The notes beneath the pieces are model-generated. The model saw only the letters and a list, made by a program, of their open reading frames with translations, made no database searches and was not told where the DNA came from. The position numbers were made by a program, and so were the translations under genes. Below, piece by piece: positions 16,225 to 30,335 of a DNA stretch of 64,000 nucleotides. The stretch's first letter is position 1; the number at the start of each line of letters is the position of its first letter. The stretch is taken from assembly GCA_047404215.1 (NCBI GenBank), contig JBDOIV010000018.1:125-64124 (forward strand). The letters are read 5' to 3'. This stretch comes from Rickettsiales bacterium. Lineage in GTDB: Bacteria; Pseudomonadota; Alphaproteobacteria; Rickettsiales; UBA1997.

Positions 16225-16365
16225 ATTCTTTCTTGACATTAACAAAGCACTGTATTATAATATAACTATACAATGCTCTTTTAATTGTATTATGGTTTCT
16301 TGATATAGTGTTTTTTGGTAGTAAAGCTGATTTTATCGCCAAGGTAAGATCTTGGGTGCAGTGTA
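16225..16365 (+). repeat. Intergenic module copy A (diverged): antisense promoter plus hairpin
   Basis: TTGACA 16233, TATAAT 16256; CGCCAAGGTAAGATCTTGGGTG 16337-16358 matches copies B-D. Confidence 0.7.
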
Positions 16366-16374
16366 ATAGTTGCT

Positions 16375-18327
16375 TTACTGATGTTGATTACTAGTTGATC
16401 CTTTGGCACTTTTCGCTTTATTTGGCTGCACTGAGGGATCTGGTTTTGCATCAGCGCGAGCTGCATGAGGCTGAAATGAAGTCGCTCTGGCTGACATCTC
16501 TCGTGTTTGATGAGTGTGACCTGATGGCGTCTGGGGATGGTGCGTCATTGCGGCGGGTTGCGGTGATCTTGGTAGTGCCTGAGGGTGTTGATAAGATGGT
16601 GGTGGACTATGAAAGTGCGAGCCAGGCATTGGGTTTGGTGGTGATGCCATCGCTATTTGCATTCCAGGGTGGTGCACTGGGATCATTGTTGGATGAGGGG
16701 GGCGTTGCGGTGTCTTTGTAGTAGCTCTGACAAGTCCTACAGCAAAGCGATCTCTTTCTGAAGCGGCTGCCGCAAGTTCCTGTCTCACTGTCATTGCATG
16801 ATGGTGACTAGCTTGTGCCGACAGTTGCCATTGCATTCCTTGAGCATATAATGCTTGACATTGCCAAGATAACTCTTCTAATCTTTGTTGGAGCTGGCTA
16901 TTCTCTTCTTTAATCGCCTCAAGATCTGTCTTTGCCACCTCAAGATCATGTGGTAGTGGCAGTAGTTCATCAAGCTTCTCTTTTGCGCTATCGTATTTTG
17001 CAGCATTTTGCGTCGCTTGGTCTCTTTGTCGCGCCGCCTCTTTTAATTTCGCATCGAAATCCGATCCTTGCGTGGCCAGTTGAGACTCTAATTCTGCTTT
17101 CATACTAGCTTTTACAGCTTCTAATTCTGCTGTAATCTGAGCCTTGATAGCTTCTTTTTGTGCGGCTAAACTTTTTTCCATTTCGCGTTCTTTCGCGGCC
17201 AGTTGAGACTCTAATTCTGCTTTCATCTCAGATTCTCTAGCCGCTAATTCTAGTTTTAGTCTAAGATTTTCAGATTGCAGTTCGGCTGTGTTTGCCGCTT
17301 CTTTTTGAGATATCAAGGGGGCAATTTCTTTTTGAACTTGCGCAATTAATTTTTGAGCATCAACGACAAGAGTTTTGGTAATTTGAGGTTTCAAACTGAA
17401 AACTTCTGCCTTTAATTTTGAAACATTATCCCGAAGTGCAGCCACAGTTTTTTGCAAAGCCTCTTCATTAATTAACAATTGCGCTTCTAGTGATGATATT
17501 TTTTCTTGTTGAGCTATTGATTTTGCTGTAAGATCGCCGTTTGCTTCTTTTTGTGCAGATAATTCTTGCTGTAGGGATGTTAACTCTTCCTTTTGTCGCG
17601 ATGACTCTGTTCTTGCTTCTTTTAACTGAGTCAGTAACGTGCCATTTAGTCCTCTTAAGGGTAGCGATTTCTCTTCATGATATCTTTCTCTATAACCCAA
17701 TACTAGCGCTTCTACTAAGTTAGGAAATGGGCTGCAGTAATATAGCCCATGTTTGCCGTATTTATCGGTAAGAAAGGGGTCCGCGCCATGCTTGATCATT
17801 GCTACTATTGCATCGGTACTTTCTGTTCTGTTAATATCGCAGGCATGATGAAAGGGTGTCATTCCTCGCTTGTCTTGAGTATTAGGGTTGGCGCCTAATT
17901 CTAGTAAAAGCTTAATTTCGAGCAGCAAAGCTTCACTTTGCGCTTTGGTGGCAGCTTGATATAGTAGCGTTTCTCCTCTGGTTTCATCTACAGCTTGATT
18001 GATATCTAATATCCCCTCTTGGACACAATATTTAATTGTTGTCGTTTTGTTATATTCGTGTAAGAGTTTAAGAAGGGTAGAGGGGTGATTACCACGTACA
18101 GAAATCTTAATTTCGCCGAGTATTGTAAGGTCTGCTTCAAGTCTTTTACTATCTTTTTCGATAAAATCAATAATGGTATCATCGCTAAGTCTTTCCAAGA
18201 TGGACTTTGCTAGAATTATAAAAAAAGCAGGATTTTCATCCTTGGGCAAGTCGATAATTTTAATATCATCGGAAGGTACGATGAGTTCGACTCCACTGGA
18301 GTCATGTACTGCTGCAGCTTTACTCAT
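16375..18327 (-). CDS. Ankyrin-repeat and coiled-coil putative effector with Pro/His/Gln-rich tail
   Basis: GETLLYQAA...LLLELGANPNTQDKRGMTPFHHAC ankyrin repeats; long heptad region; PPPSY; C-terminal PDPSVQP motif. Confidence 0.85.
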   Translation of the reverse strand: MSKAAAVHDSSGVELIVPSDDIKIIDLPKDENPAFFIILAKSILERLSDDTIIDFIEKDSKRLEADLTILGEIKISVRGNHPSTLLKLLHEYNKTTTIKYCVQEGILDINQAVDETRGETLLYQAATKAQSEALLLEIKLLLELGANPNTQDKRGMTPFHHACDINRTESTDAIVAMIKHGADPFLTDKYGKHGLYYCSPFPNLVEALVLGYRERYHEEKSLPLRGLNGTLLTQLKEARTESSRQKEELTSLQQELSAQKEANGDLTAKSIAQQEKISSLEAQLLINEEALQKTVAALRDNVSKLKAEVFSLKPQITKTLVVDAQKLIAQVQKEIAPLISQKEAANTAELQSENLRLKLELAARESEMKAELESQLAAKEREMEKSLAAQKEAIKAQITAELEAVKASMKAELESQLATQGSDFDAKLKEAARQRDQATQNAAKYDSAKEKLDELLPLPHDLEVAKTDLEAIKEENSQLQQRLEELSWQCQALYAQGMQWQLSAQASHHHAMTVRQELAAAASERDRFAVGLVRATTKTPQRPPHPTMIPVHHPGMQIAMASPPNPMPGSHFHSPPPSYQHPQALPRSPQPAAMTHHPQTPSGHTHQTREMSARATSFQPHAARADAKPDPSVQPNKAKSAKGSTSNQHQ

Positions 18328-18435
18328 GATTAACTATTTTTTTAAACAACTTTTTTATCTCATCTTAAAAAGATCTAAATTGTCAAATTAATATTGTAAA
18401 AAATAAGATGGTTTGTAGTGATCAAAAGTAATAAG

Positions 18436-28175: not shown

Positions 28176-28268
28176 AGGGTTGCCACCCTCAACATTTATG
28201 TTTAAAAAATCTTGTAATTTGCCAAGATCTTTTAGAGCTTTTACTAAAAAAACTGTAGACTTTTCATC

Positions 28269-30092
28269 TTATCTCTGAATTAGTGCAGCAAGGGCGAATA
28301 TTATATTAGAGTCAATATTTTGCTCGATTAGTAGGATTGCTGCTTCCTTATTGCCAGCAATGCAAGCTTCCATTAAAGGGGTATTACCTTCTTTGCATGC
28401 AGCTTCTTTTATATCGTGGTTCTTTACTACATATTCTAAAATAGCCATATTGTGGTTCTTGGCAGCATGATGAAGTATAGTTTTGCCATTTTGATCGCAA
28501 ACAAAATGAGCGCATCCCGTTATTAATCTTGGATCTTCAATGTTGTAGGTTTCTTGATATTTTGTAATCATTGGTGAATCACCTTCATCTTTTAACATAT
28601 GGGCGATAGCAACTTCATTTTCTATTAGGTGGTTTTCTGCTATTGCGATTTGAGCCTCAAGAAATACTTCAGATTTTTTTCTACTTTCTACTGGGGCGCT
28701 CATTCGTACAAAAAACTCTCTTTGTCTATCAAAAAATTCCCTTGATAGCGCATCTATTCTTTGATAAATTCTTGTTTCGATGCCAGGGTAAGGGCTTGGA
28801 GCGTTGGCATCGCCATCTGCAGATATTTCTAGTTCATTACCTTGCAATAAAGCTGTTAATAAGCGCGCTTCTGGAATTGATATTTTATCTATTATGGCAG
28901 GCTCCGCCTCTGCTGCGCTTTTTCCAAGAACTATTGCTGACATCAGGTCAGCTTTTCCTGGGAAAAACCAATCCATAATTTCTCTATAAAGTTCATGGGC
29001 CTCAATATCGTTAGGATCTAGTAGTCGAAATAGCATATCATCAAGATCTATTTTTGGCAAGTCTTGACTTTTTAATGCAGTAACAATGCTGTAAGCCATT
29101 TTATAATCTTTTTCTAAGATGGTCATTTGCAGCGGTGAGTATAGCAAAGCTTCGGTGGCGACTCCTGAAGAACTAAGCGGCGGATGAATGCGATAGTGCT
29201 TGTTAGCATCAATACCTGGTAGTTCTAAAATTTCATTAAGCAGCTCCCGCTCTCCAAAAGTACAGCACAGTCCCATAACAGTAACTTCATCATGAATTCC
29301 AGTATGGCTTGCAGCGACACATGTTGCATTTAGAATTCTTGCTGCTTCTTTGGGCCCTTCTTTTTTAGCTAACTCTAGTAAGTGTCGAAAAGGTTTTTGG
29401 TATTTTTGATACAAGGGTGATTCAGGTGTAAAGCTAGTCATGGCTGTTAAAGCCCTGACGATACCAGTGGCATTAGCAATATGATCGTGAAGTCTCATTG
29501 CCTCACCGTGTTCCTCTATAAGATCCAAGTCCCCCGATGCTATCAGTAGCGCTTTTAGTTGATTTGAATTTTCACGCGATAGTTCGTACGATTTAGTTTG
29601 GGATATTTTTAGTAAAGTTTCTAACCGTCTGCGGTTTTTATCAGAAGCGCTAGCTGATAGGTCAGTTAAAATCAACTGACCATCTTTGCTGTAATACCAG
29701 TCAACGTCATATTTTGCCAGCATATCAATAATAGCTTTTTGAATAGGAATTTCTATTCTTACGCCTTTAATAGTGGAGCCATAGCTTATCAAGTTCATTA
29801 CAATATCAGAGCTATTTCGCAGCGCATTCTCGTGATCAGCATCAAGGTCTTCTTCCGTCACTACCTTCGATACACTATCAGCAAAAATTTCAATTGCTGT
29901 TTTTAGTAAAGAACTTCCTTTGGACGTTTTAGAAGTTAAGGCGTGGATTAGCTCCATTGGGCACTCTTTATATAGTGATGATATTCTTTTTTTTAACTTT
30001 TTGAAGTCTTGATCGTTAATTATTTGCAGTAGCTGTTTGTATAAAGAGGGTGGGTGAGGCGAAGATGGTTCTGTGTGAGCTGTTTTTGTCAT
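28269..30092 (-). CDS. 5' fragment of the split ankyrin effector
   Basis: DQNGKTILHHAAKNHN, GNTPLMEACIAGN ankyrin repeats just before the premature stop. Confidence 0.6.
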   Translation of the reverse strand: MTKTAHTEPSSPHPPSLYKQLLQIINDQDFKKLKKRISSLYKECPMELIHALTSKTSKGSSLLKTAIEIFADSVSKVVTEEDLDADHENALRNSSDIVMNLISYGSTIKGVRIEIPIQKAIIDMLAKYDVDWYYSKDGQLILTDLSASASDKNRRRLETLLKISQTKSYELSRENSNQLKALLIASGDLDLIEEHGEAMRLHDHIANATGIVRALTAMTSFTPESPLYQKYQKPFRHLLELAKKEGPKEAARILNATCVAASHTGIHDEVTVMGLCCTFGERELLNEILELPGIDANKHYRIHPPLSSSGVATEALLYSPLQMTILEKDYKMAYSIVTALKSQDLPKIDLDDMLFRLLDPNDIEAHELYREIMDWFFPGKADLMSAIVLGKSAAEAEPAIIDKISIPEARLLTALLQGNELEISADGDANAPSPYPGIETRIYQRIDALSREFFDRQREFFVRMSAPVESRKKSEVFLEAQIAIAENHLIENEVAIAHMLKDEGDSPMITKYQETYNIEDPRLITGCAHFVCDQNGKTILHHAAKNHNMAILEYVVKNHDIKEAACKEGNTPLMEACIAGNKEAAILLIEQNIDSNIIFALAALIQR

Positions 30093-30130
30093 TATATAAG
30101 AATCTTAAGTTAATCAAAAACCTTATGATG

Positions 30131-30335
30131 TTAACTTATAAATTATTATATTGTCAAGTCATTTATATGAAAAATATCAAACGATGTATCATTATAATTA
30201 AACAATATTCAATTTATTGCTTGACAGTTCAAAATGTATATGTTATAATAAATATACACTGTTTTATAAAGTTGCTTGAGATTTGGCCGGTTTTTTTATC
30301 TACGTTAGCGCCAAGGCTAGATCTTGGGCGTGATA
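30131..30335 (+). repeat. Intergenic module copy D
   Basis: TGTCAA 30152, TTGACA 30221-N17-TATAAT 30244, GCGCCAAGGCTAGATCTTGGGCGT 30308-30331; promoter elements colinear with copy B at an offset of 10150. Confidence 0.9.

Follow-up and report, generated by a model that had tools for sequence, protein, structure and literature searches.

Four non-coding elements, here called A to D, lie in a 64,000-nucleotide (nt) stretch of a Rickettsiales bacterium genome (contig JBDOIV010000018.1 of assembly GCA_047404215.1; hereafter the window), inside an array of seven minus-strand genes between prfA and ffh. An earlier note on this DNA had described them as a repeated plus-strand promoter and hairpin module at the 3' ends of effector genes. 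On sequence grounds that observation is real, constrained, and larger than first reported. The sequence supports well that A to D belong to a larger family, about 29 promoter cassettes without a gene, and equally that these ~29 cassettes form part of a species-specific TetR regulon in which the binding itself is predicted. The source genome comprises 1.43 Mb and is 86% complete; it was compared with a sister species (G005) and with a family set of 126 genomes, namely this one and 125 others. The parts of the four cassettes are:

16233..16261, plus strand: cassette A sigma70 promoter, 12/12
16267..16279, unstranded: cassette A weak TetR-type operator at +1, score 4.0, the sole one of 29 below 6
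16335..16358, plus strand: cassette A 24-nt family motif
20071..20099, plus strand: cassette B promoter, 12/12
20103..20115, unstranded: cassette B TetR-type operator across +1, score 10.9
20121..20134, plus strand: conserved box of the A-D subfamily (B copy)
20157..20180, plus strand: cassette B 24-nt family motif, inside the hairpin described earlier
25339..25367, plus strand: cassette C promoter, 12/12
25371..25383, unstranded: cassette C TetR-type operator at +1, score 10.9
25425..25448, plus strand: cassette C 24-nt family motif
30221..30249, plus strand: cassette D promoter, 12/12
30253..30265, unstranded: cassette D TetR-type operator at +1, score 10.9
30307..30330, plus strand: cassette D 24-nt family motif, overlapping the stop codon of gene g6

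The exact plus-strand TTGACA-17-TATAAT promoters described earlier are confirmed in position (16233, 20071, 25339 and 30221) and in their 17-nt spacing, and among the 62 promoter-like sites between 15000 and 34500 they are the only ones that reach 12/12. Exact consensus promoters number 48 genome-wide, with 40 before a same-strand gene, 7 facing a convergent gene and 1 intragenic; as they are the normal strong type of this organism, the A-D sites are credible as promoters. The same -35/-10 consensus, along with antisense and orphan starts, is described for Wolbachia (PMC12558409, in the parts covered here, as for all papers cited below). Cassettes B and C arose by a recent duplication and are still nearly the same (92% over 172 nt), whereas between B and D the hexamers (12/12), the +1 region (16/16), the box (20/24) and the motif (19/24) are kept while the spacer (11/17) and the linker (6/17) have diverged and the coding flanks stand at 27-28%. 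The hexamers are therefore conserved well beyond the flanking DNA, and by this comparison the A-D elements are under real constraint and are not a plain duplication relic. The conserved box and the hairpin sequence are both present as described, and the reported divergence of the spacers holds for D and A but not for B and C (16/17), because the latter are recent duplicates. Among the strain differences listed, at least one change falls within the A-D modules, in the spacer of D, and such differences are too sparse for constraint to be judged from them.

A 24-nt motif (consensus near AAGRTCMTTGSWAGAKSCTGGGYG) recurs downstream of intergenic promoters. In a first count with leave-out scoring it was observed on the same strand at 30/181 promoters, against 2/181 on the reverse strand, 2/181 upstream and 8/3620 in shuffles. 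A seeming enrichment in G005 (10/243) proved to consist of coding-strand matches, and since the matrix favours coding strands, all counts were redone on non-coding positions. The motif is then located 57-214 nt downstream, on the same strand, at 29 of 182 intergenic promoters, compared with 1/182 on the reverse strand and 1/170 promoters in G005; the 29 are the initial 30 minus one intragenic match (C5:52416), and two further copies (C22, C53) stand outside them. With a matrix trained without A-D, the motifs of these four score 13.5-17.1 and rank 26-38 of 483,174 positions, a ranking that is not fully independent, as knowledge of A-D had gone into the seed by which the training sites were initially gathered. 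In the dispersed copies homology is confined to two blocks, promoter and motif, at variable spacing, and it stops sharply at the U-run after the motif, whereas the middle region is unalignable; the predicted cassette RNAs are 75-232 nt long. The motif forms a loose 11-base-pair (bp) direct repeat (period-11 identity 0.44 vs 0.15-0.33 at other periods), and the single OmpR-type regulator of the genome was considered as a candidate for this repeat. Upstream of one cassette (C13:32700-33000) there are short GC-rich palindromic repeats, which I take to resemble Rickettsia palindromic elements.

Among the 126 family genomes, the cassette, motif and promoter-class patterns match this genome alone. 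Pattern scans of GTDB and IMG/VR for motif and promoter gave nothing except two viral promoter matches without the non-coding motif, and a BLAST search of module C against 40 relatives gave short chance matches only, a repeated match in one of them (G002) being a protein repeat. A search of JGI data with the hairpin pattern returned five matches, all in coding or unrelated DNA without promoter.

The cassette promoters share a spacer palindrome, TRWACR-N-YGTWYA, and the genome carries an intact TetR on contig C69 (TetR_N + TetR_C_33, 195 amino acids (aa)) that was not found in G005. TetR homologs are present in 12/125 other family genomes with conserved DNA-binding helix residues, and at 11/11 homolog loci fetched the palindrome lies 18-44 nt before the TetR start. 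An operator matrix was built from 8 distinct foreign sites taken from these homolog loci only. Scores of at least 6 are reached by 28/29 cassette promoters, as opposed to 35/152 other promoters and 4/243 in G005, and scores of at least 8 by 19/29, 24/152 and 0/243, respectively. The operators occupy two distinct positions in the cassettes, over the -10 or at +1, so that simple copying is no explanation. The effector promoters back-to-back with B, C and D score below 0, and the operator-in-promoter pattern counts 26 sites here against at most one in each of the 125 other family genomes. These observations suggest that the C69 TetR binds the cassette operators. Its ligand is probably lipid-like, because the relatives keep TetR beside a glycerol-3-phosphate acyltransferase, a thioesterase-like hydrolase and an MFS transporter. 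Past the TetR gene itself, at a distance of 92 nt and on its strand (C69:10879), there is also a weak copy of the motif (16.2), which may hint at the origin of the cassettes.

Operator promoters also lead directly to the genes of recA, prephenate dehydratase (pheA), IlvD, PRA-PH and GATase, the last two within the window:

36597..36625, plus strand: operator-bearing promoter before PRA-PH (hisE); no clear motif (11.6, below the cut-off)
45243..45271, plus strand: operator-bearing promoter before a GATase (trpG-like) gene; no motif

Both recA (C13:54251) and the gene at C38:54691, whose N-terminus I take to be that of DNA polymerase I (polA), have the TetR-type operator; for repair genes such a regulator is unusual.

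With respect to their neighbours, the distribution of the cassettes is biased as well. Of the gaps that carry a cassette, 25/27 border on a gene for which G005 has no match, compared with 210/468 other gaps; counted among the genes lacking a match are a few of housekeeping type, lepA for instance, that match only partially in G005. At 8/13 testable cassette sites the conserved flanks lie no more than 283 bp apart in the sister species. A convergent gene comes next after 16/27 cassettes against 18/146 other promoters, and in 14 of these 16 cassettes no more than 80 nt separate the motif end from the stop codon of that gene; up to the motif end, cassettes overlap the coding 3' end of the partner by at most 13 nt. 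Where the next gene lies on the same strand, another promoter-like site follows the motif in 8/11 cases, and two cassettes sit between conserved genes without any cargo. The module, whose wider family and TetR-type operator had been missed, is thus present in about 29 copies, which do not always abut effector 3' ends.

Within the array, four genes encode ankyrin repeats and three are without Pfam match. Their domains and low-complexity tails suggest that the genes are effector-like, secretion being predicted at most. The relevant features are:

15084..16151, plus strand: prfA (peptide chain release factor 1; Pfam PCRF/RF-1), left anchor of the array
16375..18327, minus strand: g1, ankyrin protein (Pfam), 650 aa, 3' end toward cassette A
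18436..19941, minus strand: g2, 501 aa, without Pfam match; promoter back-to-back with cassette B
20190..25166, minus strand: g3, ~1655 aa, without Pfam match; 3' end toward B, promoter back-to-back with C
25458..28175, minus strand: g4, ankyrin protein (Pfam), 3' end toward cassette C
28269..30092, minus strand: g5, ankyrin protein (Pfam), promoter back-to-back with cassette D
30317..33442, minus strand: g6, ankyrin protein (Pfam), 1041 aa, 3' end toward cassette D
19978..20007, minus strand: g2 promoter, 10/12, without TetR-type operator
25192..25221, minus strand: g3 promoter, 11/12, within a 71-bp tandem duplication
30128..30157, minus strand: g5 promoter, 10/12

Cassettes B, C and D thus each stand back-to-back with the promoter of one effector gene while facing the 3' end of another head-on, and the description of gene-less promoters aimed at effector-like 3' ends holds up. 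Some details need amendment. The modules were said to lie past the stop codons, which is not so in D, where the motif overlaps that of g6 (30317); the partners were given as ankyrin/coiled-coil genes, which fits g1, g4 and g6 as ankyrin genes whereas g3 is without Pfam match; and divergent promoters were reported for B and D, both correctly, while that of C (25221) had been missed. The g3 promoter region is tandemly duplicated (25168-25311; 71 bp, 85% identical), which shifts the divergent promoter away from cassette C. The minus-strand promoters of the effector genes have a TGTATCA/TGATACA box ~30 nt upstream (20035, 25201, 25272 and 30185), which also precedes other effector-like genes on other contigs, possibly as the site of a second regulator. 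The conserved box of the cassettes is repeated in the last codons of g3 and g4 (20199-20212 and 25467-25480), which share six identical C-terminal residues.

The earlier note had further proposed a conserved structured RNA, a claim that finds no support, as no covariation appeared in four tests. The hairpins of A-D are unexceptional (z -0.6 to -1.3), compensatory changes occur in 0/8 of their pairs (covariation term +0.19), a register scan for a family-wide structure found none, a half-swap test gave p ~0.5, and over 26 copies 38.9% of positions are paired compared with 36.6% in shuffles. An alternative long helix in D was rejected as a shared fold, as it is not common to the family. From these comparisons the conserved feature is the sequence, not the hairpin. 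That the element belongs to no known RNA family was borne out against Rfam 15: at gathering score the window contains only a tRNA, the array gives no match at E<=2, and 20 other cassette loci give only adjoining tRNAs and chance matches. The model R1 was run on the window only, where it matched its own training copies. A U-run follows the motif in 15/29 cassettes, in none of A-D; the stems are weak, stem and U-run show no co-adaptation, and a terminator scan did not call A-D. An antitermination leader of what I would call the ops/RfaH type was rejected, as the genome, at 86% completeness, has one NusG-family gene and no paralog of it. The only invariant letters of the motif are TG; taken with the G that precedes them by nine bases, they agree with the core consensus of the elemental pause, G-10 Y-1 G+1 (PMC12288461, PMC11077087). 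This fit is present in 20/29 cassettes and twice in each of A-D (shuffle p 0.0045, post hoc).

I tentatively propose, at a confidence somewhat below even, that one co-opted TetR gates the ~29 cassettes and that these act in cis, by transcriptional interference on their neighbours. The TetR of a lipid operon, once co-opted, would keep the cassette promoters repressed, and its release by a signal or ligand would let polymerase fire from the cassette, where it would compete with the back-to-back effector promoter and run head-on toward the motif. The motif would be a sequence-defined pause or stop site, placed shortly before polymerase reaches the stop codon of the convergent gene or the promoter that comes next, a reading that would explain its conserved sequence, its strand and its variable distance. 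The cassette would thereby invert the signal of the repressor for its neighbours, while the same signal would switch on the directly wired operator genes (recA, pheA, ilvD and some effectors). In this way TetR-gated cassettes likely let a single signal interfere with the transcription of recently gained host-interaction genes, that transcription being predicted. The broader version, in which a regulator-poor Rickettsiales lineage has made the local TetR of a lipid operon its global switch for sensing the host and has placed a portable, gene-less 'signal inverter' (a repressed strong promoter plus a programmed polymerase parking site) beside new effectors, is possible but rather unlikely.

Several points weigh against transcriptional interference in cis. 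The operator core with which the relatives' sites were pulled was picked after viewing the local consensus, and cassette A scores only 4.0. The pause fit is post hoc, the motif seed having contained TG; the g-11, t-3 and g-2 of the pause consensus are unmatched, the conserved letters exceed what a pause needs and the remainder is unexplained, and A-D lack the U-run seen in 15/29. Six of the 16 convergent partners are housekeeping genes (LepA, an AMP-binding protein that is presumably acs, ABC-F, carbamoyl-phosphate synthase and two dehydrogenases), in 11/27 cases cassette and next gene run in the same direction, and three convergent partners or a tRNA lie 150-730 nt away, some behind a hairpin of their own. 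Adjacency to new genes may also reflect co-insertion at plastic sites and not a function in cis.

The main rival holds that the cassettes are sibling small-RNA genes under TetR control that act in trans, with variable 5' bodies and a shared 3' handle for a protein, their adjacency to effectors stemming from co-duplication. The units are indeed self-contained (8/11 same-strand next genes have their own promoter after the motif), the edge of homology at the U-run is sharp, sequence rather than structure is kept, two cassettes carry no cargo, and Bartonella offers a precedent in multicopy RNAs that are specific to the genus and conserved at the 3' end (PMC5387305). However, Hfq, ProQ and CsrA were not found in this 86%-complete genome, the bodies have no convincing antisense target in it, pairing of the motif with translation starts shows no effector preference, and the strong convergent bias would go unexplained; I consider this account unlikely. 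The original proposal of an effector-specific, antitoxin-like antisense RNA is not supported, because members also face the 3' ends of housekeeping genes (lepA, acs, the ABC-F gene, carB and two dehydrogenases) and 11/27 point at same-strand genes; a type I antitoxin class was rejected in any case, the partners being 190-1655-aa or housekeeping genes and no small toxin open reading frame being present. In its modified form, with TetR control and read-through RNA that pairs with effector mRNA 3' ends for silencing by RNase III, the proposal is improbable. Read-through into g1, g3, g4 and g6 is plausible for A-D, which have neither U-run nor scored terminator, RNase III and Rho are present in the genome, and in Orientia repetitive elements and those that bear effectors are reported to be silenced by antisense RNA (PMC7335160), but there are members that face housekeeping genes or no gene, the coding overlap up to the motif is at most 13 nt, and neither a conserved structure nor a toxin-like small partner was found.

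Alternatively, the cassettes may be portable promoters spread by duplication, mostly neutral passengers of inserted genes. Their restriction to one species among the 126, the joint duplication of the LRR-family and the B/C copies with their genes, the near-empty state of 8/13 testable sites in G005 and the common reuse of promoters (PMC3575422) agree with this, yet promoter, operator and motif are kept despite a spacing of 57-214 nt and an unalignable middle, and the operators stand at two different positions, which makes mere passengers quite improbable. I regard it as very improbable that effectors are inserted and amplified through the motif as a site of DNA recombination or integration. 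Its 11-bp direct repeat, an LRR gene between two same-strand cassettes that have 34 identical bases in common, and a circular D-to-C contig in one DNA run could be taken in that sense, but the D-C joint falls in a 41-nt shared promoter/+1 stretch and not in the motif, and is what an assembly graph would be expected to give; IS110, TnpB, Y1 transposase and reverse transcriptase (RT) were not found, leaving two tyrosine recombinases only, and the coupling to a repressed promoter would remain unexplained. As to an origin from repetitive extragenic palindromes (REP), miniature inverted-repeat transposable elements (MITE) or insertion sequences (IS), no Y1, IS110, TnpB or RT gene was found in the genome, terminal repeats and target duplications not having been searched systematically. 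The circular contig itself (4.9 kb, 25362-30243) joins D to C via 41 shared bases; excision or amplification of g4-g5 and an assembly-graph effect are indistinguishable, the latter being likely.

The ingredients of transcriptional interference are known from other systems. A repressor of an interfering promoter can act as an activator of its neighbour (PMC5423467), and the lambda PR/PRE and phage 186 arrangements resemble the cassettes in that a repressed strong promoter, convergent or back-to-back to its target, can invert the sign of the repressor; they are single loci, whereas the cassettes recur ~29 times with an end motif of their own and no gene, their function here being predicted. Convergent transcripts in E. 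coli are terminated by pausing and head-on collision (10.1101/2022.10.23.513370), likewise at a weak element between convergent units; there the hairpin is a pause signal between two genes, whereas here the opposing polymerase would come from a repressible gene-less promoter and the element is conserved in sequence. The nearest multicopy-RNA analogue appears to be Brt1-9 of Bartonella (PMC5387305), which are also lineage-specific multicopy intergenic alphaproteobacterial RNAs in plastic regions, most conserved at the 3' end. However, identity among the Brts is 74-100%, their folding is strong and an XRE gene follows each of them, in contrast to the unalignable bodies, the absence of a conserved fold, the mixed neighbours and the TetR-type operator of the cassettes. 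Antisense transcription near repetitive and effector-type genes, again in Rickettsiales, is seen at the RAGE of Orientia (PMC7335160), where the evidence is transcriptome-wide and the parts covered describe no dedicated regulated cassette. Putative mobile promoters (PMC3575422) similarly place like promoter blocks before unrelated genes, but in the present family the spacer held in common is a palindrome resembling an operator, and some half of the copies lead to a conserved motif, not a gene. A literature search that took in few subscription papers and no supplements found no TetR-operated non-coding cassette family described for Rickettsiales.

Rickettsiales have few transcription factors with which to control their fast-turnover effector repertoires. 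The candidate circuit comprises one TetR, a defined 13-bp operator at no fewer than 40 promoters and ~29 non-coding cassettes beside accessory genes, and it documents how, in the lineage of a single species, a regulon has expanded from one operon to dozens of sites. If the 'signal inverter' reading were true, newly acquired effectors would be put under a host-sensing switch by dropping in a cassette. The organism is uncultured; the parts of the circuit are all short and amenable to work with purified TetR, E. coli polymerase and reporters.

Some further observations concern the surroundings of the array. DNA of the region is also present in marine metagenomes, g1 has no relative in JGI metagenomes, and close relatives labelled Rickettsiales bacterium exist, with PrfA 94-96% identical. 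In single DNA runs, strain differences are densely clustered inside g5 (29207-29412) and g1 (17242-17301), which suggests local recombination tracts. Downstream of prfA, G005 carries an unrelated convergent array of effector-like genes without cassettes, pointing to an insertion hotspot. Elsewhere in the window, positions 1351-5505 encode a 1384-aa protein with a RickCE-like / Ulp1-family protease domain.

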